Assembly (NCBI GenBank): GCA_013360465.1
Contig: JABWBO010000006.1
Location: 5,502-69,501 of the forward strand
DNA from: Anaerolineae bacterium
GTDB lineage: Bacteria; Chloroflexota; Anaerolineae; Aggregatilineales; Phototrophicaceae
Length of the DNA stretch: 64,000 bases
Direction of reading: 5' to 3'
Position 1 is the stretch's first letter. Every line of letters begins with the position of its first letter. A model generated the notes under the pieces. It was not told the origin of the DNA. It was given only the letters and a program-made list of their open reading frames with translations, and searched no databases. This document shows, piece after piece, positions 45,949 to 62,655 of the stretch. Both the position numbers and the translations under genes were made by a program.

Positions 45949-47121
45949 ATGCCCCCGATGACCTCTCGCCAGCGGATGCTCACAGCCCTGCAGGGCGGCA
46001 TCCCAGACCGACTGCCGGTGACCACGCATCATGTGATGCTCTCCTTCCTGGAAAAATACTTCGGCGGAATTCCTTACCACGAGTTCTTCGACCGCTATGG
46101 GCTGGATGCCTACGTCTGGACGGTCCCCTACAAGCCGGACACCGCCAAGGGCGAGTACTTCGACCCCAATCAGACCTCTATTCACCCGCTCGATCACACC
46201 CACCGCGTCGTCTCCGACAACTGGCGCATCGAGGCGGAAGACCTCCCCGATCCGGAATACCGGACGACGCGCTATCACTTCGTGACGCCCGACGGGACGC
46301 TGAACATGCTGCTTCAGGGCAATCAGTACACCGACTGGGTGGTCGAGCCGCTGATCAAAGAGAAGCGCGACATCGACCTGATCGCCAAGTGGGTCACCCA
46401 CCCCAAGATCGACGTAGAAGCCGTCAACCGCACCGCCGAGGCGTTCGGCGAACGCGGGCTGGTGCGCGGGCACATCTGCTACTTCGACATCTACGGACAG
46501 CCGGGCTGCTGGCAGGACGCCGTCGAGCTGGTCGGCACGGAGCGGCTGATCATGGAGACCTATGACGACCCGCAATGGGTACACGAGTTGATCAAGATCC
46601 TGCACGAGCGCAAAAAGACCTTCATCTGCTCTCTGAAGGGCGCGCGTTACGACTTGCTGGAACTCGGCGGCGGGGCGGCGTCCTCGACGGTCATCTCGCC
46701 GAAGCTGTTCGACGAATTCGTCGCCCCCTATGACAGCGAACTGATCGCGATGGCGCACGAGGTCGGGCAGCGCATCGTCTATCACACCTGCGGCGGCATG
46801 ATGCCCATCCTGGAGCGCCTCGCCGCCATGAAACCGGATGCGATGGAGACCTTCACGCCGGCGGACATGGGCGGCGACATGCGGCTGGCGGAAGCCAAGC
46901 AGCGCATCGGCGACCGCGTCTGCATGATCGGCGGTTTTGACCAGTTCCACTACTATGTCGGCTGCACGCCGGAAGAGACGCGCGCCGAAGTGCGCCGCTG
47001 CTTCGAGGCGGCGGGACCGGGCGGCGGCTACATCCTCAGCCCGTCGGATCATTTCTTCGAGGCGGACCTGCCGCTCCTCGAAGCCTTCGCCGATGAAGCG
47101 CGGCAGTGCAGCTATGGCTGA
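45949..47121 (+). CDS. Uroporphyrinogen decarboxylase (URO-D) superfamily protein, MtaA/CmuA-like methyltransferase candidate, paralogue 1
   Basis: 390 aa. The N-terminus SRQRMLTALQGGIPDRLPV and the core IVYHTCGGMMPILERLAAMKPDAMETF with GGYILSPSDH are typical of the URO-D/MtaA family. It has an H-x-C-G motif. Confidence 0.85.
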   Translation: MPPMTSRQRMLTALQGGIPDRLPVTTHHVMLSFLEKYFGGIPYHEFFDRYGLDAYVWTVPYKPDTAKGEYFDPNQTSIHPLDHTHRVVSDNWRIEAEDLPDPEYRTTRYHFVTPDGTLNMLLQGNQYTDWVVEPLIKEKRDIDLIAKWVTHPKIDVEAVNRTAEAFGERGLVRGHICYFDIYGQPGCWQDAVELVGTERLIMETYDDPQWVHELIKILHERKKTFICSLKGARYDLLELGGGAASSTVISPKLFDEFVAPYDSELIAMAHEVGQRIVYHTCGGMMPILERLAAMKPDAMETFTPADMGGDMRLAEAKQRIGDRVCMIGGFDQFHYYVGCTPEETRAEVRRCFEAAGPGGGYILSPSDHFFEADLPLLEAFADEARQCSYG

Positions 47122-48271
47122 GCCGATCATCGAGATCAACGTGCCCTACGAGGCGATCGAAGCGCGCCGGGAGCGCGTCGCCCGCGCCCGGCGCTTCGAG
47201 ACGCCCGACCGCGTCCCGGTCATCCCGGCTATCGCCCACCGCTTCCTGGTCCCCAAAGCCGGCATCTCTTTCGCCGACTACTACCGCGACCCAGAGACGA
47301 TGCTGCGCGCCCAGATCATGGGGCAGAAATGGCTGATGGAGAACATCCGCACCGACGCCCACGCGATCACCGGGGCATGGGTCGGGGCGTGGACGGACTT
47401 CCAGAATACCTTTGAAGCCGGCAGCCTGGGCTGCGAAGTCGTCTTCCAGGACGACGACATCCCCTGGGTGGGTCCGGGATGGGTGAAGACCGACGACGAT
47501 CTGAAGCGGCTGGAAGCGATGGATTTTGTGCGCGGCGGCATCAACGGCAGACAGATCGCCTACCGCCGTGCCATGATCGACGTGGCGGAGAAGTACCCGG
47601 TGCGCTTCCTGGGCGGACCGGTCTTCTACCCCGGCGCGAACCCCGCCCTGACCCATACTTCGGACGGACCATTCGGCGTGGCAGGCGACGTGATGGGACA
47701 GGTCGATCTGTTCCTGGGCGTCCACGAGCGCCCCGGCTTTGTGCGCGAGCTGCTGCGCATCATCACCGACAAGCTGATCGCCTGGCTGGATTTCTGCTGG
47801 CAAGAGGAAGGACTGCCAACGCCGAAGGATTTCGCCTGGACCGATGACCTGGCGGTATCCCTTTCCGCCGAGACCTACCGCGATCTGGTGCTGCCCTTCG
47901 AGCAGCGCCTGCGCTTCCATTTCGACGGCTATCTGAGCCTGCATATGTGCGGGAAATCGGATCACCTGCTGGAGATCTTCCGCGATGATCTGAAGATCAA
48001 TGAGCTTCAGGGCTTTGGCTATCAGGTCAGCCTTGACCGGGTCGCCTCGGTCCTCGCCGGGCGGGTGGTGCTGATCGGCAACATCAACCCGATGCTCATC
48101 CACGACGGCACGCCGGAGCAGGTGCGTCAGGCGGCGCGCCAGGTCATCGAAAAGCTCGCGCCCTATCGCGGATTGATCCTCCAGGATGGCAACAATATCC
48201 CGCCCGGTTCGCCGCTGGAAAACATCAACGCCATGATGGAAGCGGCGGAGACCTACGGACGGTACGATTGA
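47114..48271 (+). CDS. URO-D superfamily protein, MtaA/CmuA-like methyltransferase candidate, paralogue 2
   Basis: Start trimmed to ATG 47114 (8 nt overlap with paralogue 1), giving 385 aa. It has RRERVARARRFETPDRVPV, LSLHMCGKSDHLLEIF and LILQDGNNIPPGSP. Confidence 0.85.
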   Translation: MAEPIIEINVPYEAIEARRERVARARRFETPDRVPVIPAIAHRFLVPKAGISFADYYRDPETMLRAQIMGQKWLMENIRTDAHAITGAWVGAWTDFQNTFEAGSLGCEVVFQDDDIPWVGPGWVKTDDDLKRLEAMDFVRGGINGRQIAYRRAMIDVAEKYPVRFLGGPVFYPGANPALTHTSDGPFGVAGDVMGQVDLFLGVHERPGFVRELLRIITDKLIAWLDFCWQEEGLPTPKDFAWTDDLAVSLSAETYRDLVLPFEQRLRFHFDGYLSLHMCGKSDHLLEIFRDDLKINELQGFGYQVSLDRVASVLAGRVVLIGNINPMLIHDGTPEQVRQAARQVIEKLAPYRGLILQDGNNIPPGSPLENINAMMEAAETYGRYD

Positions 48272-48412
48272 TCGGCGCATCTGCCAGGATTCGCGCGCCA
48301 GATGATCCTGATGGAGGATCGAAATAGAGATGGCGTCATCCGTAGGGCGTGCCGGCGGCTCGCCCATTGAAAAGACGAGACCCGACTTTGCGAAAGGACG
48401 CTCCCAACCCGA

Positions 48413-49540
48413 ATGGATGCGCAGCGGAAGATCGAACAGAGCAAAACCTTCCTCCAGCAGCTCTGGGCGCTGGACAACGAGGAACGCCCCGGATTCATGA
48501 TCGGCTATGTCGGTCCGAAGGTGAAAAACGGCAAGCCGGTTCCGAGCGCCCTGTTTTCGACCGAAGGACCGGACACCGTGCGCGACCGCCTGCAGGACCC
48601 GGCAAAATTCCTCCAGGCGCAGATCGTCGAAATCGACGCGCAGTTGAATCAGGAGGGCGATTTCGTCCCCTCGCTCTGCCCGACGCTGGGGCTGGTTGGC
48701 ATCCCATCGGCGTTCGGCTGTGAGGTCGTCTGGTGGGAGAACGACCTGCCCGCCGTCCGTCCCGTCGTCGGCGACGACGCGGAAGCAATCTACGGTCTGC
48801 CGACGCCGACCGTCCGCGACGGCGAACTGGGGCGCATGTTGGACTACACCCGCTACTTCATCGAACACAGCGACAGGGGCTATCCCATCCGCATGAGCGA
48901 CATCCAGGGACCCTTAGACAGCGCGGCGCTGATCATGGGGCACAACAATTTCCTGTTGGCGATGCTCACCAACCCGGCGGCGGTCCATCATTTGCTGCAA
49001 AAAGTGACCGATCTGACCATCGCCTTCGTGGGGGCGCAGCGCGACCTCGCCCGCAGCCTGGGCGTCGAGTTTGTGCCGAGCATGTTCCAGCCCTGGATGC
49101 CGGATGGCTGCGGCGTATCGATCTCCAACGATGAGTGCGTGATGATCTCGGCGGCGATGCACGACGAATTCCACGTGCCCTACCTCAATCAGCTCTCCGA
49201 CGCCTTTGGCGGAGTCTACCTGCATTCCTGCGGCAGATGGACCCACCAGTTCCCCAGCCTCGCCAAGGTTCACAACCTGCGCGGGCACGAGTTCGGCGCG
49301 AGTGAAGCAACTTTCGAACCGGTGCTGGACCATTTCGGGGGGAAGATCGTCCTCGCCTGCCGGGTCGGGCTGCACCGCGATCTGAAGTTCACCGGCATGG
49401 CAGATTTTGTCCGCCGGGTCAAAGCCGCCAGCAGGACCTATCGCGGTCTGTTCATCAACGTGGACATCACCAACGGGTTGATCGATGAGGCGTGGCAGGA
49501 GACGGATCTGCTGGAGATTTACGCCCTGTTCCGGGGATAA
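48413..49540 (+). CDS. URO-D superfamily protein, MtaA/CmuA-like methyltransferase candidate, paralogue 3
   Basis: 375 aa. It has GIPSAFGCEVVWWEND, ISNDECVMISAAMHDEFHVPYLNQLSDAFGGVYLHSCGRW, and an H-x-C-G motif. Confidence 0.82.
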   Translation: MDAQRKIEQSKTFLQQLWALDNEERPGFMIGYVGPKVKNGKPVPSALFSTEGPDTVRDRLQDPAKFLQAQIVEIDAQLNQEGDFVPSLCPTLGLVGIPSAFGCEVVWWENDLPAVRPVVGDDAEAIYGLPTPTVRDGELGRMLDYTRYFIEHSDRGYPIRMSDIQGPLDSAALIMGHNNFLLAMLTNPAAVHHLLQKVTDLTIAFVGAQRDLARSLGVEFVPSMFQPWMPDGCGVSISNDECVMISAAMHDEFHVPYLNQLSDAFGGVYLHSCGRWTHQFPSLAKVHNLRGHEFGASEATFEPVLDHFGGKIVLACRVGLHRDLKFTGMADFVRRVKAASRTYRGLFINVDITNGLIDEAWQETDLLEIYALFRG

Positions 49541-49545
49541 TCACG

Positions 49546-49581
49546 CCGCAGCCCGCGATCCGGTTGGATCGCGGGCTGCGG
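49546..49581. terminator. Strong hairpin between convergent operons
   Basis: Perfect 16 bp stem CCGCAGCCCGCGATCC (49546-49561), loop GGTT, GGATCGCGGGCTGCGG (49566-49581). It starts 6 nt after the URO-D3 stop and ends 8 nt before the stop of the convergent gene. There is no U-tract. Confidence 0.6.
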
Positions 49582-49588
49582 GATAGGT

Positions 49589-50860
49589 CTAATACGACTG
49601 CGTGTCTCCGCCGGGTGCGCTGTCAGCCTGGTGCGCCGCCATCGCCATCTTCTGCTGCATCCTGACGGGCGTGTTTTCCATCAGCCAGGCTTCGGTGCGC
49701 GCGGCGATCTCCGCCGGAGTCTCCTTGTAGCCGTAAGTCTCCAGCAGGACCGGCGTCCACTTCTTGCCCCAGCGGATGTGAAAGTTCTCGTCGCTCCAGT
49801 CATAGCTGACCGCCGCCGCTGAGATGTCGTCTTCGATCTCTTCCCAGTGTTCGCGGTTGGCAGATTTTTCCGGCATGCCGTTCGGCTCGATCACGGTGGT
49901 CAGCAGCGCGTACTGATCGACGGCGGGCAGGGTCATCATCACGTCGTAGATCTGCACCACCTGCGGCACGTCTTCGACCTTCAGCCCAAGCTGCTGAATG
50001 CGCACCATGCCCAGCTGGCTATGGCGGATTTCATCCCAACAGTGGCGCGCCACGTTGTTCTGGTACTCCCAGGGCATCTCCGGCGTCATCCACAGGATCG
50101 ACCCCAGGGTTTCCGCCGCCGTCATCTCGTTGAGATAGTGCTTGAAGCGCCACAGACGATGGGCTTCCGGCTCGGCTTTGCGATCTGGCTCAACATCCAC
50201 CAAGGGATCGAAGACGAGCCAGCCCTTCATGCGCTGGCACTTCTTCCAGGGCAGCAGCAGCGGATGCTCTGCCGGCTCCGGCGGTTCGGCGCGCGGCGTC
50301 TCCATGCCGGTGACGCCGCCATCCGCCGCCAGCAGCCCGGCGACGTAATCGCGCCATGCCTCCCAGCCGGGGTAGCGCGCCGCCGCTTCGGGGAAGAACC
50401 GTTCCGCCCAGGCGACCTGCCGTTCGAGCGCCGGCAGCACCATCTCCGTCACCTTGACGGTCGGACGGTCGAAGTCACTCCAGGTCACGTCGGGGTGGGA
50501 ACGGTACGCCTCAAGGAGCTGCTTCTTGACCACCAGATAGACGGCGGCGACCAGTTCGGCGCTGTTCTGCGCCCGGTCCAGCGCGCGCGCCAGACGTAAG
50601 AGCCGCTCGCTGAGGTTGCGTTCCGGCTGATAGGAGCGCAGCTCGCGCAGGCGCTGGTAAATCTTGTCTGCCGAGTCGGCGCTTTCCCACAGGTGCAAGC
50701 CGATCTCGTTCTTCGCTTCCCATTCCGGCACGCCCGGCAGCCAACCGGAGAGGGTGCGCATGCACGCCTTTTCCAGAAAAGCATAGCGCTTCAGAATCTC
50801 GGTATTCCGCTCAATCGTGATGTGGGTCGGTGCGCTGCTCATCGTCCTCAACTGCTCCAC
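49589..50860 (-). CDS. Hypothetical protein with a ferritin-like diiron-carboxylate motif set
   Basis: 423 aa and the last gene of the minus-strand ABC operon. The C-terminal half carries E (NEMTAAETLG), ExxH (WDEIRHSQ), E (VIEPNGMPE) and ExxH (SDENFHIRW), with roughly 33 / 47 / 33 residue spacings. Confidence 0.7.
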   Translation of the reverse strand: MEQLRTMSSAPTHITIERNTEILKRYAFLEKACMRTLSGWLPGVPEWEAKNEIGLHLWESADSADKIYQRLRELRSYQPERNLSERLLRLARALDRAQNSAELVAAVYLVVKKQLLEAYRSHPDVTWSDFDRPTVKVTEMVLPALERQVAWAERFFPEAAARYPGWEAWRDYVAGLLAADGGVTGMETPRAEPPEPAEHPLLLPWKKCQRMKGWLVFDPLVDVEPDRKAEPEAHRLWRFKHYLNEMTAAETLGSILWMTPEMPWEYQNNVARHCWDEIRHSQLGMVRIQQLGLKVEDVPQVVQIYDVMMTLPAVDQYALLTTVIEPNGMPEKSANREHWEEIEDDISAAAVSYDWSDENFHIRWGKKWTPVLLETYGYKETPAEIAARTEAWLMENTPVRMQQKMAMAAHQADSAPGGDTQSY

Positions 50861-50903: not shown

Positions 50904-51809
50904 TCACTTCAGCGCCCCGCGCGCCAAGCCGGAGATGATCATGCGCTGTCCGAACAGGATGATCAGCAGCACGGGCACGATCATGAACACGCTCAGCGCG
51001 CTCATCTGGTCCCAGGGCTTGGTATAGGTCGAACCAGGATCGGTCAGCTCGGTCAGACCGACGCTCAAGGTCTTGGTATCGACATTATGCGCGAAGACCA
51101 GCGGATACAGCAACTCGTTCCAGCTGATGATGAAATTGATCAGGAACATGGTGAACAACGCCGGGCGAATCAGCGGCAGCACGACGCGCAGGATGATCTG
51201 GGCGGTGTTCGCGCCATCGATGTAGGCGGCTTCTTCGATCTCCGCCGGAACCTGATTGATGAACGAGACCAGGGTCATGATGGTGAAGGGCAGCATCAGG
51301 CTGCTCATCATGATGATCAGCCCGTAAGGGGTGTTGACCAGTCTGAAGCTGTTGAAGGTCTGATACATCGGAACCAGTACGGCGATCTGCGGCAGCGCCA
51401 CCGAGAGGATCAGCGCCAGATAGAGGATGTTGCTGCCCGGAAAGCGGATGCGCGCCAGCGCATAAGCCGCCATGCCCGCCGCGATCACCGACACCGCCGA
51501 CGAGCCGATGGCGAAGATCAGCGAATTGCGGAAGTAGGTCAGAAACGGGATCGACTCCATCATTTTCAGGTAGTTTTCCAGCGTCGGGGCGCTGGGTAGG
51601 TAGGTCGGCGGTATGTTGAAGAGTTCCGAGGAGGGGGTGATCGACGAGATGAAGATGAAGTAGAACGGCAGCCCGATCACCACAGCGAAGATGATGAAGC
51701 TGACGTAGACGAGGATGCTTCCGCCGAAGCGGGTGAGGCGTTCCATCGTCTGCCCTGGATGATCTCCCTGGGCGGGCTGCGCCGGTCTGGCGGTAAGCTG
51801 GGTGGACAT
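50904..51809 (-). CDS. Carbohydrate ABC transporter permease (MalG type)
   Basis: Start trimmed to ATG 51809, giving 301 aa. EAA loop EIEEAAYIDGANTAQIILRVVLPLIRP. Confidence 0.9.
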   Translation of the reverse strand: MSTQLTARPAQPAQGDHPGQTMERLTRFGGSILVYVSFIIFAVVIGLPFYFIFISSITPSSELFNIPPTYLPSAPTLENYLKMMESIPFLTYFRNSLIFAIGSSAVSVIAAGMAAYALARIRFPGSNILYLALILSVALPQIAVLVPMYQTFNSFRLVNTPYGLIIMMSSLMLPFTIMTLVSFINQVPAEIEEAAYIDGANTAQIILRVVLPLIRPALFTMFLINFIISWNELLYPLVFAHNVDTKTLSVGLTELTDPGSTYTKPWDQMSALSVFMIVPVLLIILFGQRMIISGLARGALK

Positions 51810-51822
51810 CAGCACAGCCCTT

Positions 51823-52752
51823 TCATGCCGAAACGTCGAAGCGGCGGAACAGATACAGCCCGACGGCGCCGACCAGCGCGACGATGCCGACCAGCACCAT
51901 GCTGATCGACGCCGCGTAGCCATAATTGAGCGAATTGCTTTCCAGGTAAATTTTCTGGGCGATCACCGTCGTGGAGAAGCCGGGTCCGCCGCCGGTCATC
52001 AGGAACGGCAGATCGAACACCGCCAGCTGCCAGACGATCATGAACATGCCGGTGGTGATCAGGATGGGCAGCAGCATGGGGATGGTGATGTAGAACAGGC
52101 ACGTCCAGGCGTTCGCGCCATCGACGCGCGCCGCCTCGTACAGGTCGCGTCCGATGCCCTGTAAGCCGGCGAGCAGCACCAGCGCCACGAACGGCGTACT
52201 CTTCCAGACGGCGACCGAGACCACTGCCAGCTTGGCGTTGTTCGGGTCGATCAGCCAGCGGACATTCGCCCCCGTCAGGGTGCGCAGCAGGTCGGGAATG
52301 ATGCCGAACTGATCGTCGAACATCCAGCGGAAGCCGAGCGCCGCCACCGCCATCGGGATCGCCCAGGGAATCAGCACCAGGGCGCGCGCCAGATAGCGCA
52401 GACGGAAGGCGGCATTGAGCAAATGGGCGACCGCCAGCCCCAGGGTCAGTTGAAAGAAGGTCGCGCCCAGCACGAACAGAAGGGTGAAGCCGATGCTGGC
52501 TTGCACCACCGGATCAGAACCGATGCGCGTAAAGTTGTTCAGCCCGACGAACACGGGACCGTCATGATCGAACGCCGGGTTGTACTTGTGCAGACTGAGG
52601 TATGCCGTCTGCAAAAAGGGGTAGAACGCCGTGAAGACGCGCAGCGCCACCGCCGGCAGCAGCAGCAGAACAGCCACGATATAGAAGCGCTGCCGCAGCG
52701 TCAGCCGGGAGAACCGTCCCGGAGGCTGGGCGGCGCGTGATTGAGCAGCCAT
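51823..52752 (-). CDS. Sugar ABC transporter permease (MalF type)
   Basis: Start taken as ATG 52752 (309 aa). A TTG at 52809 is an alternative. EAA loop DLYEAARVDGANAWTCLFYITIPMLLP. Confidence 0.85.
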   Translation of the reverse strand: MAAQSRAAQPPGRFSRLTLRQRFYIVAVLLLLPAVALRVFTAFYPFLQTAYLSLHKYNPAFDHDGPVFVGLNNFTRIGSDPVVQASIGFTLLFVLGATFFQLTLGLAVAHLLNAAFRLRYLARALVLIPWAIPMAVAALGFRWMFDDQFGIIPDLLRTLTGANVRWLIDPNNAKLAVVSVAVWKSTPFVALVLLAGLQGIGRDLYEAARVDGANAWTCLFYITIPMLLPILITTGMFMIVWQLAVFDLPFLMTGGGPGFSTTVIAQKIYLESNSLNYGYAASISMVLVGIVALVGAVGLYLFRRFDVSA

Positions 52753-52851
52753 AGAGCGTAATTTTCGGAGTCTCGAAACGCAGGACGAATCCACGCTGCC
52801 AGGGGGCAAACCGCCGGCTTACCCCCTGGCTTGAACGATCCAGATATTCCC

Positions 52852-54225: not shown

Positions 54226-54253
54226 TTGGCGATGCTGCGAACGGTGGTATAAT
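54226..54253 (+). promoter_or_regulatory. Candidate extended -10 promoter for the GH38 gene
   Basis: TTGGCG (54226-54231), 16 nt spacer, TGgTATAAT (54245-54253). It lies in the AT-richer divergent spacer, 75 nt upstream of the ATG at 54328. Confidence 0.45.
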
Positions 54254-54327
54254 CGTATTTGTCTAAACAACCAATTTCAAATATATAGTCAACACGCCCC
54301 TTTGTCAAACAGGTAGAGGCTGTATTC

Positions 54328-57054
54328 ATGGCTCGATTTCATGCAACGATGGTTAGTCATACTCACTGGGATCGTGCATGGTACTGTACCTTTCAGGAAT
54401 TTCGCCTACGTCTGGTACAGTTGGTCGATAACCTCCTAAAGATTCTGGATTCCGACCCGAATTTTCGCTGTTTCATGCTCGACGGGCAGATGAGCGTTAT
54501 CGAAGATTATTTGGAAGCCCGCCCAGGGCAGGCGGAGGCGCTGCGCACCCACTGCCGTTCGGGGCGTATCCAGGTCGGTCCCTGGTTCGTACTGGCTGAT
54601 GAGTTCCTGGTCAGCCCGGAATCCCTCATCCGTAATCTCCGTCTAGGACACCGCATGGGCGAGGACTATGGCGGCGTGGTCAAGATCGGCTACGTGCCGG
54701 ATGGCTTCGGACACATCGCCCAACTGCCGCAAATCCTGCGCGGCTTCGGCATCGATAACGCCTTTTTCTGGCGCGGCATGGGCGCGGAGGGAGACCGCCT
54801 GGGCACGGAATTTCACTGGGAGGCGCTCGACGGTTCCGCCGTGACGACGATCCTCATGCCCTGGGGCTACCACAACGTCACCAACCTCGGCTATGGCATC
54901 CACTGGGGTGACACCTCGCAGATGTCATTCGACATGCAGATGGCGCTGGACAAGATCGAACGCGCCGTCAAAAAGCTCACGCCGATGGCGAACACCAACG
55001 CGCTGCTGCTCATGAACGGAATCGATCACGCCGAGCCGGAACCCCGCATCCCGGCGATCATCGCCCAGGCGAATGATCACCTGGAAACGGCGGAGATCGT
55101 CCAGGGCACGCTCGCCGATCATCTGGCACGGGTGCGCGCGTCCGGCGTGACCCTGCCCCATTTCAGCGGCGAATTTCGCTGGGGACGCTATTCGGAGATC
55201 CTTCAGGGGGTCTATTCCACCCGCATTCACCTCAAACAGGCGAATCATGCCGGAGAAACCCTGCTGGAACGCTATGCTGAACCGCTGGCGGCGCTGTCCT
55301 GGCTGGCGGGGGCAGCCGGCACGCCCGGCGTGCCGGACATGCTCGACCTCGCCTGGCACTGGCTGCTCCTCAACCATCCGCATGACGATATATATGGAAG
55401 CGGCATCGACGAAGTGCATCACGAGATGGCGTTCCGCTTCAGCCAGTCTAGACAGATCGCCGACGCGCTGGTGCGAGACAGCCTGCGCCGCCTCGCCCGT
55501 CAGGTCGATTTCAGCGCGCACACCGGCGTACCGGTCATCGCCTTCAACCCGCTGGGATGGGAACGCCGCGAGATCGTCGAGGCGGAGATCGACTTCGAAT
55601 TCGACGACCCCGACGCTGGATCGTTCCAGGTGGTGGATTCCGCCGGCGTGATCCTGCCGCATCAGGTGATCAGCGACGAGACGCTCTTCTGGATGGAGGT
55701 CCTCAAACCTAACCGCAAACGCCGGGTGAAAGTCCTCTTTCCGGCGGCGACGCCCGCCTGCGGTTATGCCGCATTCACCATCCAACCGCGCGCCGCTCAG
55801 CCGCCCGCAGCTGACCTCTCCGTCGCCGAGCGCAGCGCGGAAAACGCCTACATCGCCCTTCAGATCGCCGACGACGGCGGCATGACGCTGACCGACAAGA
55901 TCACCCGGCGCACTTACAGCGGAATCGGACACCTGGTGGATGTCGCCGATGCGGGCGACGAATACACCTTCTGCCCGCTCAAAGACGATCAGCCGGTCGG
56001 CACCGCCGGCGCGCCGGCGCAGATCACGCGCACCGAAGCAGGTCCATGCCGCGCCTCCTTCCGTATCACGCGCACGCTGAAACTTCCAGCCGGGTTGAGC
56101 GCCGACCGTCAGAGCCGCAGCGCTGAAACGGTCGAGATGCCCATCGTCACCGACGTGGTCGTCTATGCCGGGCAGCCCGGCGTTTACGTCACGACTCGCA
56201 TCGTCAACCACGCGCACGATCACAAGCTGACCGCCGTCTTTCCCAGCGGAATCCAGGCGGAAGTGGCGCATGTCGATGAGTCCTTCATGATCGCCGAGCG
56301 CGCTCTGCGCCTGCCCGATTCCACCGGCTGGGTCGAAGACCCGACCGCGCTCATGCATCAGCGCACCTTTGCCGATCTCAGCGACGGAGAGCGCGGGCTG
56401 GCGGTACTCAATCGCGGGCTGCCCTCGGTTGAAGTTCACCAGGACGGCACGATTGCCCTCACCCTGCTGCGCAGCGTGGGCTGGCTCTCGCGCGATGATC
56501 TGTGGGTGCGGCGCATCGCTGCCGGACCGCTGGTTCCTACCCCCGGGGCGCAGTGCCTCGGCGACTATACCTATGAATATGCAGTCCTGGCGCATCCCGG
56601 CAACTGGCGCAGCGTCTATCAGGCTGCCCACAACTACAACGCCCCGGTGATGACGAGGCGCGCCGACACGCACCCTGGTCTGGAGCTGCGCGAGATGAAT
56701 ATCACGCGCGACAATCCCGATCGCGTGCGCAAAATTCCCTGGCAGCGGGGTGGACCTCTGCCGGCGGCGCACAGCATCGTGCAGATCGAACCACCGGCGC
56801 TGATCCTGAGCGCCGTCTATCGCAGCGGGGACGCGCTGATCGTGCGCTTCTACAATCCCACGCGCGATGCCGTCGGTGGATCGGTGATCTTCGGGCTGCC
56901 GCTGGCGCGCGCCGAGCAGGTGCGCATGGATGAAACTTTCGTGATGCCGCTGCTGCACGATGCCGCTGGACGTATCCCAGTCGAGGTGCGCGCCGGAGAG
57001 GTCTTCACCCTGCGGCTGATCCCCGCCAAGCCGTCGGAAGTGCCGGCACAGTGA
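54328..57054 (+). CDS. Glycoside hydrolase family 38 alpha-mannosidase (cytoplasmic, MngB-like architecture)
   Basis: 908 aa. The N-terminal metal-site signature is MVSHTHWDRAWY. FMLDGQMSVIEDYLE and GYVPDGFGH are typical of bacterial GH38. There is no signal peptide. Confidence 0.9.
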   Translation: MARFHATMVSHTHWDRAWYCTFQEFRLRLVQLVDNLLKILDSDPNFRCFMLDGQMSVIEDYLEARPGQAEALRTHCRSGRIQVGPWFVLADEFLVSPESLIRNLRLGHRMGEDYGGVVKIGYVPDGFGHIAQLPQILRGFGIDNAFFWRGMGAEGDRLGTEFHWEALDGSAVTTILMPWGYHNVTNLGYGIHWGDTSQMSFDMQMALDKIERAVKKLTPMANTNALLLMNGIDHAEPEPRIPAIIAQANDHLETAEIVQGTLADHLARVRASGVTLPHFSGEFRWGRYSEILQGVYSTRIHLKQANHAGETLLERYAEPLAALSWLAGAAGTPGVPDMLDLAWHWLLLNHPHDDIYGSGIDEVHHEMAFRFSQSRQIADALVRDSLRRLARQVDFSAHTGVPVIAFNPLGWERREIVEAEIDFEFDDPDAGSFQVVDSAGVILPHQVISDETLFWMEVLKPNRKRRVKVLFPAATPACGYAAFTIQPRAAQPPAADLSVAERSAENAYIALQIADDGGMTLTDKITRRTYSGIGHLVDVADAGDEYTFCPLKDDQPVGTAGAPAQITRTEAGPCRASFRITRTLKLPAGLSADRQSRSAETVEMPIVTDVVVYAGQPGVYVTTRIVNHAHDHKLTAVFPSGIQAEVAHVDESFMIAERALRLPDSTGWVEDPTALMHQRTFADLSDGERGLAVLNRGLPSVEVHQDGTIALTLLRSVGWLSRDDLWVRRIAAGPLVPTPGAQCLGDYTYEYAVLAHPGNWRSVYQAAHNYNAPVMTRRADTHPGLELREMNITRDNPDRVRKIPWQRGGPLPAAHSIVQIEPPALILSAVYRSGDALIVRFYNPTRDAVGGSVIFGLPLARAEQVRMDETFVMPLLHDAAGRIPVEVRAGEVFTLRLIPAKPSEVPAQ

Positions 57055-57060: not shown

Positions 57061-57089
57061 TTGACAACAGATTCGATGTGATGTAGAGT
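57061..57089 (+). promoter_or_regulatory. Candidate promoter for the regulator gene
   Basis: TTGACA (57061-57066), 17 nt spacer, TAGAGT (57084-57089), starting 7 nt after the GH38 stop. The palindrome TTGTACAA lies at 57117-57124, downstream of it. Confidence 0.4.
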
Positions 57090-57134
57090 AACAGGTATAG
57101 ACCTTTATGCTCGTGATTGTACAAGTTGGGACCT

Positions 57135-58256
57135 ATGCCAATCCTCCTTGATCGAACACCCGATGCGCCACACCTGCATGTGCAGGTCGCCGCTATCCTC
57201 AAGAAGCGCATCCATAACGGGACCTGGAGCAGCGGCAGCAGCATCCCATCGGAGAAAGAGCTGTGCGCCGAATTCGACGTGGCGCGCGGGACGGTGCGCC
57301 AGGCATTGGCGAGCCTGGAGGCGGAAGGCTATCTGAGCCGTGAACAGGGGCGGGGAACCTTCGTTCAGTGGCGCGAATTCAGCGCCAACCGCAGCCGATC
57401 CCAACGCCTGGCATTCGTCGTCCCGTATGTGCGCGACTCGTCGGTTCCGACCATCCTGGTCGGCTTCCAGCAGGTCGCCGAACAAGCCAACTACTCGGTC
57501 ATCTTCAACCACGTCAACAACGATCTTCAGCAGCAGGAACGGGTGGTCCTCAAGCTCATCGACGAGAATGTGGCGGGGATCGCCCTCTACCCCATCAATT
57601 CGGAAACGCTGCCGATCATCGAAAACCTGTATAACGCCCGGTTTCCGCTGGTGCTGATCGACCGCTACGTGCGCACGTTTTCGACCGACTATGTGATGAC
57701 CGATCACTTCGGCGGGGCGATTCGCGGCACACATTATCTGTTCAACCTGGGACATACCCGCGTGGGCTTCGTCACCTGGCTCTCGCCGGCGGTCAGCATG
57801 GAACATCGATTCCTGGGTTACAGTCAGGCGGTCGCCGAACGCGGGCTGCGGCTCAGCGACCGCCTGATCTGCCGGGTCGAGGGGTATCCGATGATTGACC
57901 GCACGCCGCTGAACGAGTATCTTTCGGGACCCGACCGCCCCACCGCCGTATTCGCCGCCAATGACCAGATCGCCATCGCCGTCTATCGCGCCGCGACCAG
58001 CCTGGGGCTGTCGATCCCCGACGATCTCTCGGTCCTGGGATTCGACGATCTGGATGTTTCGGCGCATCTCGATCCGCCGCTGACGACCATCGCCCAGCCC
58101 TTCATGCAGATCGGCAGGACTGCCGCCGAACTCCTGCTGCGGCGAATCAGCGGAGAACGCGGTAACCTTGAGCAGTTGGCGCTTCAGGCGGCGTTCTCTC
58201 TGCGCGAATCGTGCCGGGCGCTGATATCTGAAGAATCAACGGCGCCGGCGATATAG
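57135..58256 (+). CDS. Transcriptional regulator with an N-terminal GntR-type winged HTH and a C-terminal LacI-type periplasmic-binding-protein sugar-sensor domain
   Basis: Start taken as ATG 57135 (the ORF track begins at TTG 57117). GntR HTH: IPSEKELCAEFDVARGTVRQALASLEAEGYLSREQGRGTFV. PBP-like region: RLAFVVPYVRDSSVPTILVGF ... AVFAANDQIAIAVYRAATSLGLSIPDDLSVLGFDD. Confidence 0.88.
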   Translation: MPILLDRTPDAPHLHVQVAAILKKRIHNGTWSSGSSIPSEKELCAEFDVARGTVRQALASLEAEGYLSREQGRGTFVQWREFSANRSRSQRLAFVVPYVRDSSVPTILVGFQQVAEQANYSVIFNHVNNDLQQQERVVLKLIDENVAGIALYPINSETLPIIENLYNARFPLVLIDRYVRTFSTDYVMTDHFGGAIRGTHYLFNLGHTRVGFVTWLSPAVSMEHRFLGYSQAVAERGLRLSDRLICRVEGYPMIDRTPLNEYLSGPDRPTAVFAANDQIAIAVYRAATSLGLSIPDDLSVLGFDDLDVSAHLDPPLTTIAQPFMQIGRTAAELLLRRISGERGNLEQLALQAAFSLRESCRALISEESTAPAI

Positions 58257-58380: not shown

Positions 58381-59013
58381 ATGTCTCTGATAGAGGAAAT
58401 TCGAGAGGGTGTCATCGAGGGTCAGGCAAACGTCGTCCTGGAGAAAGTCAGGCAAGCCCTTGAAGCTGGCGAATCGGCGGAGGTCATCCTCAACCAGGGA
58501 CTGATCAGCGGTATGCAGCGGGTGGGCGAATTGTTCGAAGAAGGCACGGTCTTCGTGCCGGAAATGCTGATCGCCGCCCGCGCGATGGACAAAGCCCTGA
58601 CGGTGCTGCGCCCGCATCTCGTCGAAGCCGGGGTGCAGCCCATCGCCAAAGTCGCCATCGGCACAGTAAAGGGCGACCTGCACGACATCGGCAAGAAGCT
58701 GGTGGCGATGATGCTGGAAGGTTCGGGGTTCGAGATCATGGACCTGGGCATCAATGTGCCGCCAGAGAAATTCGTCGACGCCGTGCGCCAGGGCGCGCAG
58801 GTCGTCGCCCTCTCCGCCCTGCTGACCACCACCATGCCCAACATGAAAGATGTGGTCGACGCCATCGACCAGGCGGGGCTGCGCAGGCAGACGCGGGTGA
58901 TCATCGGCGGCGCGCCAGTCAACCAGAACTACGCCGACCAGATCGGCGCAGACGGCTTCGCGCCGGATGCTTCCAGCGCGGTCCGCAAGGTTCGCGAACT
59001 CGTCGGCGTCTGA
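58381..59013 (+). CDS. Corrinoid (cobalamin-binding) protein of methyltransferase systems
   Basis: Start taken as ATG 58381 (GGGAG 5 nt upstream), giving 210 aa. It has an N-terminal B12-binding_2 helical cap, then a Rossmann B12 domain with the DxHxxG signature GDLHDIGKKLV and SALLTTTM. Confidence 0.92.
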   Translation: MSLIEEIREGVIEGQANVVLEKVRQALEAGESAEVILNQGLISGMQRVGELFEEGTVFVPEMLIAARAMDKALTVLRPHLVEAGVQPIAKVAIGTVKGDLHDIGKKLVAMMLEGSGFEIMDLGINVPPEKFVDAVRQGAQVVALSALLTTTMPNMKDVVDAIDQAGLRRQTRVIIGGAPVNQNYADQIGADGFAPDASSAVRKVRELVGV

Positions 59014-59023
59014 GTGCGGCACG

Positions 59024-60961
59024 ATGCATCACAGGCTGATTCTGATGCCCTCCGGGCGGCAGGGCGAAGTCGCTGACGGCGCGACTTTGCTGGAAGCCGC
59101 CCGCCAGCTCGGCGTCGAACTGGAAGCCATCTGCGGCGGCAGACAAACCTGCGGCAAGTGCCTGGTGACGCTGGAACGCGGGCAGTTCCTCAAGCACAGC
59201 ATCACCTCTTCGTCGGATCATCTGACACCGCCGGGCGAAGATGAGCGCGCCTATGCCGCCGCGCACGGGCTGACTCTTGAGACGTGGCGCATGGCATGCG
59301 CTGCCTGCATCACCGGAGATGTCCTGCTGCACATCCCGGAAACCAGCCTGGCGCGCAAGCAGGTCATCCTGAAAGCTGCCCGCGACATGGTGATCGAGGT
59401 CGCCCCTGCCGTGCGCCTCATCTACGTCGAAGTCGAACCGGCATCGCTGGGCGGCGACGGCGATTGGCAGCGACTGCAGAAGGCGCTGGCGGAACAGTGG
59501 CAGATCGATGGGTTGGAGATCGATGTGTCTCTGCTGCGGCGGCTGCAGGCGGCGCTGCGCGCCGGCGGGTGGAAGATCACCGCCACGCTCTGGGATGAGC
59601 GCCAGGTGATCCGCGTCGAACCGGGCTATGTAGAAAGCCTGTACGGGCTGGCGGTCGATGTTGGCTCGACCACCATCGTCTGCCACCTCTGCGATCTGCT
59701 CACCGGTCAGGTGATCGCCACCGAAGCCACGATGAATCCTCAGGTGCGCTACGGCGAGGACCTGATGAGCAGAGTTTCCTATGCCACCGGCGAAGCGGGC
59801 GGGCTGGGGCGGCTGCACCATGCCGCCGTCAAAGCCATCAACGATCTGGCGGACCGCGCCGCCGGGACCGCCGGCATCGACACCGCCGCCATCACCGACA
59901 TCGTCCTGGTCGGCAACACCATCATGCACCACCTGCTGCTCGGCATCGACCCGGTAGAACTGGGACAGGTCCCCTTCGCCCTGGCGACCGAGGACCCAGT
60001 CGATCTGCGGGCGCGCGAGCTGGGTCTGAACGTCCTGCACCCCGGCGCGCAGGCGCATCTGCTGCCCTGCATTGCCGGCTACGTCGGCGCGGACTGCGTG
60101 GCGGCGCTGCTGGCGAGCCTGCCCTTCCCGCAAGACGAGGTCCTGCTGATCCTGGACATCGGCACCAACGCCGAGATCATGCTGGTGGCGGGGTCGCGCA
60201 TCCTGGTCACCTCCAGCCCGACCGGTCCCGCCTTCGAAGGCGCGCAGATCCGTCATGGTCAGCGCGCCGCCTTCGGGGCAATCGAGCGCTTCCGCCTGGA
60301 CAGCACGACGGGAGCCGCCCGCTACCGCGTCGTCGGCGACGAGCGCTGGAGCGATCGGCTTCAGCCGGGGCACTCGCTGACGCCGACCGGCATCTGCGGG
60401 TCGGGCATCATCGAGATCGTCGCCGAGCTGCTCAGCGCGGGCTACGTCGCCCCCAGCGGCTACTTTGCGCCGACCGGGAAACACCCGCGCATTCGCGCCG
60501 CCGGAAAATCGGCGGAGTTCGTCCTCGCCGAAGCCGATGAAACCGCCGGCTCGCGCGAGATCGTCGTCACCCAGTTCGATATTCGCGCCGTGCAGCTCGC
60601 CAAAGCCGCGCTGTATGCCGGGGCGCGCCTGCTCATGGATCACCTCGGCATCGAGCGGGTGGACCGCATACACCTCGCCGGCGCATTCGGCAGCTACATC
60701 GACCCGATTTACGCCATGACCATCGGGATGATCCCCGACTGTGACCTCAGCCGGGTGGTCGCTGTCGGCAACGCCGCCGGAGATGGCGCGCGGATAGCGC
60801 TGCTCAATGCCGCCGCCCGCCGGCAGGCAGCTGATCTGGCGCGGCGCGCCGAATTCGTGGAGACCGCCGCTCATCCGCGCTTCCAGGACCTGTTCGTGGA
60901 GGCGATGGCGCTGCCCCACGCCAGCGATTCTTTTCCGCACCTTGCCGATCTCAAGCCGTGA
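59024..60961 (+). CDS. Corrinoid activation/regeneration protein (RACo-type: 2Fe-2S ferredoxin domain plus ASKHA ATPase domain)
   Basis: Start trimmed to ATG 59024, giving 645 aa. It has a plant-type 2Fe-2S motif CGGRQTCGKC ... C. The ASKHA-like segments LAVDVGSTTIV and LILDIGTNAEI are typical of the DUF4445/RACo family. Confidence 0.88.
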   Translation: MHHRLILMPSGRQGEVADGATLLEAARQLGVELEAICGGRQTCGKCLVTLERGQFLKHSITSSSDHLTPPGEDERAYAAAHGLTLETWRMACAACITGDVLLHIPETSLARKQVILKAARDMVIEVAPAVRLIYVEVEPASLGGDGDWQRLQKALAEQWQIDGLEIDVSLLRRLQAALRAGGWKITATLWDERQVIRVEPGYVESLYGLAVDVGSTTIVCHLCDLLTGQVIATEATMNPQVRYGEDLMSRVSYATGEAGGLGRLHHAAVKAINDLADRAAGTAGIDTAAITDIVLVGNTIMHHLLLGIDPVELGQVPFALATEDPVDLRARELGLNVLHPGAQAHLLPCIAGYVGADCVAALLASLPFPQDEVLLILDIGTNAEIMLVAGSRILVTSSPTGPAFEGAQIRHGQRAAFGAIERFRLDSTTGAARYRVVGDERWSDRLQPGHSLTPTGICGSGIIEIVAELLSAGYVAPSGYFAPTGKHPRIRAAGKSAEFVLAEADETAGSREIVVTQFDIRAVQLAKAALYAGARLLMDHLGIERVDRIHLAGAFGSYIDPIYAMTIGMIPDCDLSRVVAVGNAAGDGARIALLNAAARRQAADLARRAEFVETAAHPRFQDLFVEAMALPHASDSFPHLADLKP

Positions 60962-60994
60962 GTTTCGAAATCTGTTTCTAAAGGAGGTTGCCAT

Positions 60995-61897
60995 ATGACC
61001 GTCAGCCTTGCTCAGCTTCTTGAATCACAGGCGACCCTGGTCGCCGACGGCGGCATGGGGACGATGCTCTTCGCCGCTGGTCTGGCGCGCGGCAGCGCGC
61101 CCGAAGTGTGGAATGTCGAACGTCCCGAAGCCGTGCGCCGGATTCACGCCGACTACATCGCCGCCGGGGCGCAGATCATCCTGACCAACAGCTTCGGTGG
61201 CAGCCGGGCGCGGCTGAGCATGCACGGGCTGGCGGATCGGGCAGCCGAACTGAACCGCGCTGCCGCTCAGATCGCCCGTTCCGCCGCCCAGGATGCCCGA
61301 CATTCAGTGGTAATCGCCGGCTCCATCGGACCCACCGGACAGATGCTCGCGCCTTACGGCGACCTGGAACCGGACGATGCGGCGGAGATGTTCGCCGAAC
61401 AGGCGGCGGCGCTGGTCGAGGGCGGCGTCGATGTGCTGTGGATCGAGACGATGGCGGATATGAGCGAGGTGCGCGCCGCCGTCGAAGGCTGCCGCCGCGC
61501 AGCGCCGGGCGTGCCGCTGGTCGCCACGCTGACCTATGACACGCGCGGGCGCACCATGATGGGCGAGACGCCGGAACACGCCGCCGAGACTCTTGAAGGG
61601 ATGGGACTGCTGGCGCACGGCGCAAACTGTGGCAACGGTCCCGACGAACTGCTGACCGCCATCGATCACATGCATCACGCCCAGCCCCAGGCGCACCTGG
61701 TCGCCAAAGCCAACGCCGGGCTGCCCCACATGGTCGATGACCGCGCGGTGTACGACGCCGGTCCCGAAGTCATGGCGGCGTATGCCCGGCAGGCGCGCGC
61801 CAACGGCGCCCGCATCATCGGCGCATGCTGCGGCAGCACGCCGGAACATGTGCGCGCCATCGCCGAAGCGCTGCGCCAGGAGGACCCGGTAACATGA
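60995..61897 (+). CDS. Stand-alone homocysteine-binding S-methyltransferase domain protein (MetH N-terminal module / Pfam S-methyl_trans type)
   Basis: 300 aa. It has ADGGMGTML and ILTNSFGG. The zinc cysteines are in HGANCGNGP and IGACCGSTPEHV, matching the C...CC pattern of the MetH/BHMT/MmuM family. Confidence 0.9.
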   Translation: MTVSLAQLLESQATLVADGGMGTMLFAAGLARGSAPEVWNVERPEAVRRIHADYIAAGAQIILTNSFGGSRARLSMHGLADRAAELNRAAAQIARSAAQDARHSVVIAGSIGPTGQMLAPYGDLEPDDAAEMFAEQAAALVEGGVDVLWIETMADMSEVRAAVEGCRRAAPGVPLVATLTYDTRGRTMMGETPEHAAETLEGMGLLAHGANCGNGPDELLTAIDHMHHAQPQAHLVAKANAGLPHMVDDRAVYDAGPEVMAAYARQARANGARIIGACCGSTPEHVRAIAEALRQEDPVT

Positions 61898-62655
61898 CCC
61901 ACTACATCGCACTGACCTGTTCCGCCCTGGCGCGCAGCGTCTATGCAGCGGCGGCGGTCGCTGAACCGGTCGTCTCGGTACGCCTGTTCGATCAGGGCTT
62001 GCACAACGCGCCGCGCAGCCTGCGCGGTCGGCTGCAAGCGGCGGTCGATGCCGTAACGCCCGGCGAATGCGACGCCATCCTGCTCGCCTACGGCATCTGC
62101 GGCACGGCAACCATCGGGCTGACCGCTCACCACACGCCGCTGGTCATCCCCCGCGCCCACGACTGCATCACGCTCTATCTGGGATCGCGCCGGCGCTATC
62201 AGGATGAGTTCGACGCCTACCCCGGAACCTACTGGTACAGCCAGGATTACCTGGAACGCAATCCCTCTAGTTCGGGCGTCGCCCTGGGTGCTGCCAGCAT
62301 CCAGGTCAGCGAGTCGATCTACCAGCAGTACGTCGAGAAGTATGGGCAGGACAACGCCGATTACCTGATGGAGGTGATGGGCGAATGGGGCAGCCACTAC
62401 AACCGCGCCGTCTTCATCGATACCGGACTCGGCGACGGCGCGATCTATGAACAGCGGGCGCGCGAACAGGCGGAGAAGCGCGGTTGGCGCTACGAGAAAC
62501 GCGCGGGCGACCGGGGGATCACCGATCGGCTGCTGAGCGGCAGATGGAGCGAGGAGGAGTTCCTGATCATCCCGCCGGGGCATCGAATCGTCCAGGCAGT
62601 CGGTGATCAGCTCGTCCAGGCGCAGGCTGTCACCGACGAACCGCCGGAAACATAG
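61894..62655 (+). CDS. DUF1638 domain protein
   Basis: Start trimmed to ATG 61894 (ATGA overlap with the previous stop), giving 253 aa. By eye, the pattern LHNAPRSLRGRLQAAVD ... AILLAYGICGTATIGL ... LVIPRAHDCITLYLGS matches DUF1638, a family usually found next to corrinoid methyltransferase genes. Confidence 0.75.
   Translation: MTHYIALTCSALARSVYAAAAVAEPVVSVRLFDQGLHNAPRSLRGRLQAAVDAVTPGECDAILLAYGICGTATIGLTAHHTPLVIPRAHDCITLYLGSRRRYQDEFDAYPGTYWYSQDYLERNPSSSGVALGAASIQVSESIYQQYVEKYGQDNADYLMEVMGEWGSHYNRAVFIDTGLGDGAIYEQRAREQAEKRGWRYEKRAGDRGITDRLLSGRWSEEEFLIIPPGHRIVQAVGDQLVQAQAVTDEPPET

Follow-up and report, generated by a model that had tools for sequence, protein, structure and literature searches.

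The DNA analysed here, called the window, is a stretch of 64,000 nucleotides (nt) from an Aggregatilineales bacterium (Anaerolineae, Chloroflexota; GCA_013360465.1), and coordinates are window positions unless a locus number precedes them. One part of the window combines genes of corrinoid-dependent methyl transfer with genes of carbohydrate import and hydrolysis (Table 1). Three genes for proteins of the URO-D superfamily (U1, U2 and U3) meet a convergent operon for a CUT1-type ATP-binding cassette (ABC) importer, composed of genes for a solute-binding protein (SBP) and two permeases and closed by a DUF455 gene. On the other side of the importer, a divergent gene for a GH38 alpha-mannosidase is followed by a regulator gene and by four genes, hereafter the module, which encode a corrinoid protein (CP), a RACo/RamA-type reductive activase, a stand-alone homocysteine S-methyltransferase (HcyMT) and a DUF1638 protein. 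The composition of this locus suggests the O2-independent stripping of methyl groups from imported methylated sugars. A preliminary description of the DNA, made from its sequence, had named the same genes; every one of them was confirmed by Pfam at its coordinates, and the motifs GDLHDIGK, CGGRQTCGKC, GANCG and GACCG were found in the translations.

Genes were called from a six-frame listing of open reading frames (ORFs) filtered by the G+C content of third codon positions, which left one clear gene per interval (the G+C content of the window is 60–65%). Domains were assigned with Pfam, and proteins were compared with NCBIfam models.

Table 1. Genes and candidate regulatory features of the locus, and MtaB-family genes of related loci
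Feature	Position	Strand	Evidence and remarks
Promoter-like TTGGCT-17-TATAAT (45884-45912), then perfect inverted repeat TTGACTAGAC-N14-GTCTAGTCAA (45912-45945)	45884..45945	+	Candidate operator
U1, URO-D superfamily, MtaA/CmuA-like putative corrinoid methyltransferase	45949..47121	+	Pfam URO-D E 8.5e-23; NCBIfam mtaA_cmuA 3e-15
U2, MtaA/CmuA-like URO-D protein	47114..48271	+	Pfam E 6.7e-31; NCBIfam PRK06252 7e-21
U3, more divergent URO-D protein	48413..49540	+	Pfam E 1.3e-15; NCBIfam PRK06252 9e-11
Perfect 16-bp GC-rich hairpin between convergent U3 and DUF455	49546..49581	.	Read from the sequence; likely bidirectional terminator
DUF455 ferritin-like protein, di-iron ExxH motifs, last gene of importer operon	49589..50860	-	Pfam E 1.3e-8, barely above cut-off
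CUT1 ABC permease 2	50904..51923	-	Pfam BPD_transp_1; likely true start ~51812 (gene calls in relatives)
CUT1 ABC permease 1	51823..52809	-	Pfam BPD_transp_1; likely true start 52752
SBP, CUT1 type, Tat signal RRMFLRG	52852..54174	-	Pfam SBP_bac_1, SBP_bac_8
Divergent promoter region: GH38 promoter-like 54226-54253 (+), SBP promoter-like 54308-54280 (-)	54226..54308	.	Read from the sequence
Operator-like TTGTCTAAAC-N14-ATATAGTCAA	54259-54292	.	GH38/SBP promoter region; same geometry as U1 repeat
Cytoplasmic GH38 alpha-mannosidase, without signal peptide	54328..57054	+	Pfam, three GH38 domains (N-terminal catalytic, middle, C-terminal)
Promoter-like TTGACA-17-TAGAGT and near-palindrome AGGTATAGACCT (57093-57104), 5' of regulator gene	57061..57104	+	Candidate autoregulatory operator
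GntR helix-turn-helix regulator, LacI-type periplasmic-binding-protein sensor	57135..58256	+	Pfam GntR, Peripla_BP_3/1/4
CP, B12 cap and Rossmann B12 domain	58381..59013	+	Pfam B12-binding_2 PF02607 and B12-binding PF02310; DxHxxG as GDLHDIGK
RACo/RamA-type ATP-dependent reductive activase, 2Fe-2S domain	59024..60961	+	Pfam Fer2 and RACo_linker, middle, C_ter 2e-86; CGGRQTCGKC
HcyMT (MtgE/'Bhmt' type), stand-alone	60995..61897	+	Pfam S-methyl_trans 7.7e-77; GANCG, GACCG
DUF1638 protein	61894..62655	+	Pfam 1.4e-37; start overlaps HcyMT stop (ATGA)
MtaB-family genes	L020:14658-16049, L051:11715-13082, L062:5798-7177, L144:5680-7074		Also L040, L041, L052

Proteins encoded by the locus

The U1 and U2 genes are tightly coupled, the ATG of U2 overlapping the end of U1 by 8 nt. 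MtaA/CmuA-family models are the best NCBIfam matches for U1, U2 and U3 alike, whereas the hemE equivalog TIGR01464 gives U2 20.1 bits (E 2.6e-4) against a cut-off of 303 and does not match U1 or U3. Direct single-sequence searches of PDB with U1–U3 returned remote matches only (HemE, MtaA and CdmB; E 1e-4 to 1e-6). When a profile of nine U2 orthologues was used instead, MtaA (4ay7, 1.9e-7) ranked first and CdmB, the methyltransferase I (MT I) enzyme for chloromethane, ranked second (5.8e-7), ahead of all HemE entries. The NCBIfam scores and the U2 profile search thus bear out the earlier assignment of these proteins to the MtaA/CmuA family and not to HemE. In the AlphaFold (AF2) model of U1 (pLDDT 88.6, pTM 0.90) a URO-D/MtaA barrel carrying a four-strand beta insertion is predicted; the top Foldseek match of the model is MtaA 4ay8, but at the level of HemE (both E ~1e-12), so that MtaA and HemE are not separable by this comparison. 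The insertion (residues ~93–133, early in the barrel) is absent from both MtaA and HemE and, judging from the model, may constitute a substrate lid or a dimer element.

An HxC zinc motif is invariant in the orthologues of all three proteins (H279/C281 in U1, n = 33; H277/C279 in U2, n = 21; H271/C273 in U3, n = 10) and is lacking in the HemE sequences aligned with the U2 profile. At the position of the third zinc-binding Cys of MtaA, the alignment places an invariant Asp in U1 (D367), Asn or Ser in U2, where an invariant Asp (D358) stands two residues earlier, and in U3 a non-ligand residue adjoining an invariant Asp. In the UroD superfamily a His-Cys-Cys site characterises S- and Se-methyltransferases, and in O-methyltransferases one or both Cys are replaced by carboxylates or non-ligands (PMC10418091). 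Since the HxC motif is kept and the third Cys is lost, U1–U3 are best read, following this rule, as putative zinc-dependent corrinoid methyltransferases with an O-type site. Recent work on the superfamily noted further uncharacterised clades with unassigned substrates (PMC13222342).

The genes of the module follow each other closely, as had been described, with 10 nt between CP and RACo, 33 nt between RACo and HcyMT, and an overlap of 4 nt between HcyMT and DUF1638. The best NCBIfam model for the CP is the MtgC-type corrinoid protein (4.9e-65; 218.9 bits, under the cut-off of 370), and that for the activase is AcsV-like (5.6e-114). The HcyMT passes NF005718, 'betaine--homocysteine S-methyltransferase' (347.9 bits, cut-off 338), the family named MtgE in Ruegeria; the earlier proposal of homocysteine as the acceptor fits this result. 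The split methionine synthase of Phaeobacter depends on five parts: two modules, one for homocysteine and one for pterin, a B12 protein, a RamA-like activase and DUF1638 (10.1101/192971). In the Mtg system, MtgC is the corrinoid protein of both glycine-betaine demethylation and methionine synthesis, and in the authors' scheme MtgD passes the methyl group of betaine to tetrahydrofolate; a carrier common to a catabolic methyl donor and to methionine synthesis therefore has a precedent (PMC12478193). The module in the window corresponds to four of these five parts. In agreement with the preliminary description, the pterin-binding part was found neither in the window (by tblastn and by Pfam analysis of all large ORFs) nor in the 10 kb past the window end, which were inspected in L060, another record of the same contig, in which the HcyMT has a 100% match. 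Because the four-gene operon equals the split methionine synthase minus its pterin part, a transfer of methyl groups to homocysteine would be consistent with a known module. The same searches detected no mtaB gene in the window (best tblastn E 0.33) or in the 10 kb beyond it, and no P450 gene was present in the window. The list of parts given in the preliminary description stood, but the combination of CP, RACo, HcyMT and DUF1638 has already been described as split methionine synthase and as the MtgC–MtgE hub.

The AF2 model of the DUF1638 protein (pLDDT 80.5) had no fold match in PDB (best E 0.046), and C9, C69 and H89-D90-C91 are invariant among its homologues; these residues may form a metal or redox site.

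The importer and its neighbours are of carbohydrate type. The nearest PDB relatives of the SBP are disaccharide and glycoside binders (trehalose/maltose-binding protein, MalE3 and the sulfoquinovosyl-glycerol-binding protein). The GH38 enzyme matches 3lvt (E 1e-110) and 2wyh (1e-95), and in NCBIfam a mannosylglycerate hydrolase model, the latter under its cut-off. The diiron-motif protein that was said to end the importer operon (transcribed from 54174 down to 49589) proved to be DUF455 with its ExxH motifs. A sequence search found no relative of DUF455 in PDB and, judged by title and abstract, none of the literature matches listed for the family dealt with a bacterial enzyme. The locus contains no glycosyltransferase or export genes, and no esterase is conserved in it.

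Conservation of the gene set and its regulatory signals

The nearest relatives of the proteins come from metagenome-assembled genomes of Anaerolineae and Aggregatilineales, and U1 shares 83% of its residues with a protein of the cultured relative Aggregatilinea lenta. A scan anchored on GH38 and restricted to one genome per species yielded 50 loci, nearly all from Anaerolineae, against which the window proteins were run by tblastn; individual loci are designated below by L numbers. Over all fetched loci, full-length orthologues were counted in 33 cases for DUF455 and likewise for U1, in 21 for U2 and in 10 for U3. Around the GH38 orthologues lie DUF455, U1 and U2, in some loci also U3, together with the importer and the regulator. 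This clustering recurs in dozens of related species and exceeds chance. Two main layouts were distinguished: type A shows the gene order of the window, and in type B (A. lenta; L001, L007) the GH38 gene is followed 3–15 nt later by U1 and then by the SBP gene. Among GH38 loci with full flanks, DUF455 occurs together with URO-D genes in 11, without them in five, and URO-D genes occur without DUF455 in three. This pattern of both or either fits the speculation that DUF455 might be the O2-dependent, and the URO-D proteins the O2-independent, enzymes for one and the same step. Many loci also hold a second DUF455 paralogue, with an identity of merely 26–29%.

The module lies directly 3' of the regulator gene in the window and in L008, L011, L012, L020, L040, L041, L051, L052 and L144. 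In a GH38 tree the module-linked loci form two clades with an unlinked clade between them; the linkage would be either ancestral, with later losses, or the product of at least two separate origins. Three further loci are rearranged. In L013 all genes lie on one strand in the order SBP-permease-permease-DUF455-regulator-CP, with the carrier last. The ~1.7 kb 3' of this CP gene (L013:1744-3416) contain a single ORF of at least 120 amino acids (aa; 144 aa, TTG start, 2452-2886) and no RACo remnant. L062 has an operon U3-CP-MtaB-RACo-HcyMT-DUF1638, followed by importer orthologues, about 12 kb from the GH38 locus of that genome (identity of U3, 80%). In L143, U2 and U1 stand beside the regulator gene and diverge from U3-CP-RACo-HcyMT-DUF1638-SBP-permease-permease, and neither GH38 nor DUF455 is found within 10 kb of the cluster. 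In both L062 and L143 the corrinoid operon begins with the U3 orthologue (~80% identity), 10 nt 5' of the CP gene. The linkage of the genes is thus kept through at least four gene orders, and the rearrangements in L013, L062 and L143 define the URO-D genes, the corrinoid module, the CUT1 importer and the sugar-sensor regulator as a cohesive set. GH38 and DUF455 are missing in L143 and are therefore frequent but dispensable partners. The linkage of the URO-D genes to the importer, GH38 and the regulator holds across many species, and the module stays with these genes through several rearrangements; GH38 was confirmed as a companion in many loci, but not as a member of the core.

A gene of the MtaB family lies between the CP and RACo genes in L020, L040, L041, L051, L052, L062 and L144 (NCBIfam MtaB_Meth, E 2.9e-115, under the cut-off). 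MtaB is absent from the window, L008, L011 and L143, which retain all other parts. More distant DUF1638 loci from metagenomes show orders such as URO-D-DUF1638-RACo-Pterin_bind, mostly without recognisable sugar genes. Since URO-D genes are paired there with RACo, corrinoid and pterin-binding genes, URO-D paralogues are regular members of corrinoid systems in these bacteria. A related arrangement was seen on a 4.2-Mb Chloroflexi contig (L061:1931-10744), where three URO-D genes, CobW, CP, Pterin_bind and RACo lie in a row beside a ROK-family regulator gene and DUF1638, with the HcyMT gene ~0.6 Mb away.

The four best sigma-70-like sites between 45.7 and 63 kb are situated 5' of U1, GH38, the SBP operon and the regulator gene. 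The inverted repeat 5' of U1 ends 3 nt before the start codon, and AAAGGT(A/C)TAGTCAAC is kept at this place in type A loci. Of the 12 matches resembling the operator-like element of the GH38/SBP promoter region that were found in other loci, 11 adjoin a GH38 or SBP start, with ~1 expected from shuffles. Three copies of the box T[AC]TAGTCAA are present in the window, each 5' of U1 or at the GH38/SBP promoter region. The near-palindrome just downstream of the promoter-like site of the regulator gene (consensus AGGTATAGACCTTT, GT-N-TA-N-AC type) recurs 5' of this gene in 20 related loci and in L060, near consensus in all but L037, and is probably an autoregulatory operator. It is unlike the boxes 5' of U1 and GH38, and its position weight matrix matches only its own site in the window (22 bits), with no match 5' of U1, GH38 or the corrinoid gene; the case for a shared regulon is therefore left to the weaker T[AC]TAGTCAA box. 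The search for promoter-like sites gave none in the 124 nt 5' of the corrinoid gene, which points to probable co-transcription of the module with the regulator gene. No member of any Rfam family was detected in the window, riboswitches included; neither a SAM (S-adenosylmethionine) nor a cobalamin riboswitch precedes the corrinoid operon. A 'TGATGCA' box without Rfam match is located ~40–60 nt 5' of the CP start in the window (58300-58345), L008, L011, L020 and L040.

The remainder of the window is also largely of carbohydrate type. It contains four further CUT1 systems (five in 64 kb), GH2, GH172, LacI and DeoR regulators, and the uronate and GH51 genes listed earlier, which correspond to UxaC, UxaE and a GH51-type arabinofuranosidase. 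This succession of sugar loci is broken by an island (22373-27015), where the gene for an EB_dh (ethylbenzene-dehydrogenase-like) protein has as neighbours a two-component pair (HisKA_3/GerE) and a small RNA-binding protein with an RRM_1 domain. The operon with GH172, GH2 and ABC genes includes a 778-aa protein (31096-33432) with weak matches only, to spermine synthase (E 1.8e-5) and class I methyltransferases (3.4e-4). Convergent to DUF1638, a gene (62683-63957) encodes a predicted secreted protein of 424 aa without Pfam match, and in L060 a gene of 416 aa, also without Pfam match, takes this position.

A possible route from methylated sugars to methionine

The domain identities, the operon structure and the conserved gene linkage are facts of the locus; on top of them we infer that the URO-D proteins use this CP, in which direction the methyl group travels, and what the substrate is. 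A carbohydrate-type solute would enter through the CUT1 ABC system and, if it is an alpha-mannoside, would be trimmed by the cytoplasmic GH38 enzyme. The URO-D proteins would then act as substrate:corrinoid methyltransferases, in which the ether oxygen is polarised on zinc and the methyl group is transferred to Co(I) of the adjacent CP. RACo would rescue oxidised Co(II) by ATP-driven reduction and keep the cofactor active, with DUF1638 assisting in some way, and the HcyMT would unload methyl-Co(III) onto homocysteine, giving methionine and regenerated Co(I). The same carrier and homocysteine module probably also take part in the general synthesis of methionine, a double role known from the Mtg system of Roseobacters. 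Taken together, the locus would represent one regulon that joins carbohydrate import to URO-D-mediated demethylation through a corrinoid carrier towards methionine, with an O-methylated sugar or glycoside as the most likely donor, and we give this reading a probability of about 0.5. The interpretation as demethylation of methylated sugars, advanced in the preliminary description, is partly supported.

Several observations weigh against this reading. Cleavage of an alkyl methyl ether is chemically more demanding than that of an aryl ether, and we know of no corrinoid enzyme for such substrates beyond methanol. The URO-D proteins have no characterised close homologue, and their identity to PDB relatives is 15–20%. 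The preliminary description had argued from the exclusively carbohydrate-type surroundings of the module; the neighbours are as described, but the argument is weak alone because the whole window is dense with sugar genes, and in so sugar-gene-rich a region some adjacency of methyltransferase and sugar genes is to be expected. Type B loci, such as that of A. lenta with U1, GH38 and DUF455, have no module within 10 kb, and the module is absent, despite sufficient downstream sequence, from L014–L017, L033, L037 and L046, that is, from about half of the comparable loci. The CP-linked loci could go back to one or two ancestral events. The distant DUF1638 loci lie mostly outside sugar contexts; the sugar embedding is specific to one clade, and the metagenome scan did not extend it beyond Aggregatilineales. 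Solitary HcyMT orthologues (64–69% identity), outside sugar contexts, are found in A. lenta and on the 4.2-Mb Chloroflexi contig, and the module may therefore also be a housekeeping methionine synthase. Finally, the MtaB genes of seven relatives offer methanol, or MtaB itself, as a donor route.

The best of the alternatives is that the module is the split cobalamin-dependent methionine synthase (MetH) of the cell, with its pterin partner encoded elsewhere, that it came to lie beside a sugar locus by chance in one clade, and that the URO-D proteins have another role in sugar catabolism and do not use this carrier. The four proteins are four of the five genetically defined components of split MetH (10.1101/192971; PMC12478193), the HcyMT passes the NF005718 cut-off and has solitary orthologues, and the module is missing near about half of the type A and all of the type B loci in a setting saturated with sugar genes. 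This account has difficulty with the U3 orthologues that lie inside the corrinoid operon in two genomes, with the persistence of the corrinoid gene beside sugar genes through at least four gene orders, and with the resemblance of the URO-D proteins to corrinoid methyltransferases and not to decarboxylases. Neither does it explain the lack of a SAM or cobalamin riboswitch 5' of the module, which might be expected for a methionine gene. We consider it unlikely, while assigning it a real minority chance.

The donor might otherwise be methanol or another small C1 compound released in glycan breakdown, e.g., from methyl esters. The carrier would then be loaded by MtaB, lost in the lineage of the window, and the URO-D proteins would be MtaA-like second methyltransferases with an unspecified acceptor. 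The MtaB-family genes between CP and RACo in seven relatives would complete, with MtaC and a URO-D-type MtaA, the classical methanol system. Nevertheless, the window, L008, L011 and L143 retain all other parts without MtaB, the His-Cys-Cys site that is typical of thiol-methylating MtaA is missing from the URO-D proteins, the HcyMT already provides the unloading step, and the locus has no conserved esterase, which makes this explanation rather improbable. A reverse, biosynthetic direction, in which the URO-D proteins would methylate a sugar or some other acceptor with methyl groups drawn from the carrier, appears very unlikely. Corrinoid methyl transfers are reversible, MtgD has been proposed to be bidirectional (PMC12478193), and direction is unreadable from sequence, but the importer, the cytoplasmic glycosidase and the sugar-sensing repressor-type regulator form a catabolic context, glycosyltransferase and export genes are lacking, and the HcyMT is a sink and not a source of methyl groups. 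That the three URO-D genes are genuine hemE genes of tetrapyrrole synthesis has a negligible probability and was rejected on the NCBIfam hemE scores: the Pfam URO-D match and a Foldseek score close to that of MtaA speak for it, but the score of U2 is 20 bits against 303, U1 and U3 have none, the HxC motif is invariant, and three divergent paralogues lie in a sugar operon with no other heme gene nearby.

The demethylation of imported methylated sugars would have consequences beyond this locus. Sugar methyl ethers are common. They occur, for example, as 4-O-methyl-glucuronate in xylan, as methylated forms of mannose, galactose, fucose and rhamnose in glycans of algae, cyanobacteria and mycobacteria, and among the sugars of rhamnogalacturonan II, and they obstruct both glycoside hydrolases and the catabolic steps that follow. 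Large populations of Anaerolineae live in digesters, activated sludge and sediments. The literature searched yielded a single carbohydrate demethylase, an O2-requiring cytochrome P450, as the preliminary description had stated (PMC6292453), so the O2-free handling of methylated sugars represents a gap that a cobalamin route would fill. In full-text literature searches, no account was found of methylated sugars being demethylated by a corrinoid- or cobalamin-dependent route. It is as yet a tentative and somewhat doubtful claim that the locus encodes the first O2-independent, cobalamin-dependent O-demethylation of methylated sugars, i.e., of alkyl methyl ethers, in which three dedicated URO-D enzymes would feed a shared carrier leading to methionine, with DUF455 as an O2-dependent alternative. 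If it is correct, carbohydrate ethers would join aryl ethers, methanol and amines as substrates of corrinoid methyltransferase chemistry, and glycan degradation would be tied directly to methionine and SAM supply and to cobalamin demand; a confirmed sugar substrate would mean a new enzyme activity. Even with another substrate, the locus provides a testable function for three uncharacterised URO-D clades, DUF455 and DUF1638. The component families and the carrier–homocysteine hub are already known; the novelty lies in their being joined to three divergent URO-D clades within a sugar-import regulon that is itself conserved.

Comparison with known methyl transfer systems

The closest parallel to the module is the split MetH/MtgBCDE system of the Roseobacter group (Phaeobacter inhibens, Ruegeria pomeroyi), with which it shares an MtgE/'Bhmt'-type HcyMT, a CP with cap and B12 domains, a RamA/RACo activase and DUF1638 (10.1101/192971, PMC12478193). 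In both, one carrier would serve methionine synthesis as well as catabolic demethylation, as is known for the Mtg hub and proposed here for the window. The window differs in that it lacks the pterin-binding MtgD and the MttB-family MtgB, the candidate donor enzymes belonging instead to the URO-D superfamily, and in that its genes form one operon behind a sugar-sensing regulator within a carbohydrate locus of a Chloroflexota bacterium.

Aryl O-demethylases and the chloromethane system (OdmB/VdmB, MtvB, MtoB, CdmBCA) likewise combine a URO-D MT I with a CP, a second methyltransferase (MT II) and an ATP-dependent activase (PMC13222342, PMC8630106). The window has the candidate URO-D-type MT I, the CP and the activase, and no pterin-binding MT II was found in it or in the 10 kb downstream. 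The MT II enzymes of the known systems bind pterins and pass the methyl group to tetrahydrofolate, whereas the window has an HcyMT instead; their substrates are methoxy-aromatics or chloromethane in a C1 or aromatic gene context, whereas the genes analysed here are associated with sugar import, and identity to CdmB is very low. The methanogen MtaABC and bacterial MtaBC systems resemble the window in the MtaC-like CP, in the MtaA-like URO-D proteins with the HxC zinc motif, for which MtaA 4ay7 is the top PDB match, and in the MtaB-family gene of the relatives. The window is distinguished from them by the absence of MtaB, of the third Cys of the thiol-activating site and of coenzyme M, and by an acceptor module that is a MetH-type homocysteine domain.

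Type 1 mlp clusters, with three MtaA-like proteins, a CP and a Ram/RACE activase (Kountz & Balskus, PMC10418091), are similar in possessing several URO-D paralogues, a CP and an activase without a tetrahydrofolate methyltransferase. Mlp proteins have His-Cys-Cys sites, sulfur- or selenium-related neighbours and mostly strictly anaerobic Firmicutes hosts, whereas in the window the third Cys is missing, the neighbours are of carbohydrate type, genes for HcyMT and DUF1638 accompany them, and the hosts belong to the Anaerolineae. Membership in these clusters was rejected on the zinc site, where the His-Cys-Cys triad is not conserved, and on the carbohydrate gene context.

The P450 6-O-methyl-galactose demethylase of marine porphyran degraders (PMC6292453) is built from unrelated proteins, and the likeness would lie in the outcome, as in both cases, if our hypothesis holds, a sugar methyl ether would be removed within a glycan-utilisation locus. 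The P450 is an O2-dependent monooxygenase that releases the methyl group as formaldehyde, whereas the system proposed here would rely on nucleophilic transfer to Co(I) and conserve the methyl group.

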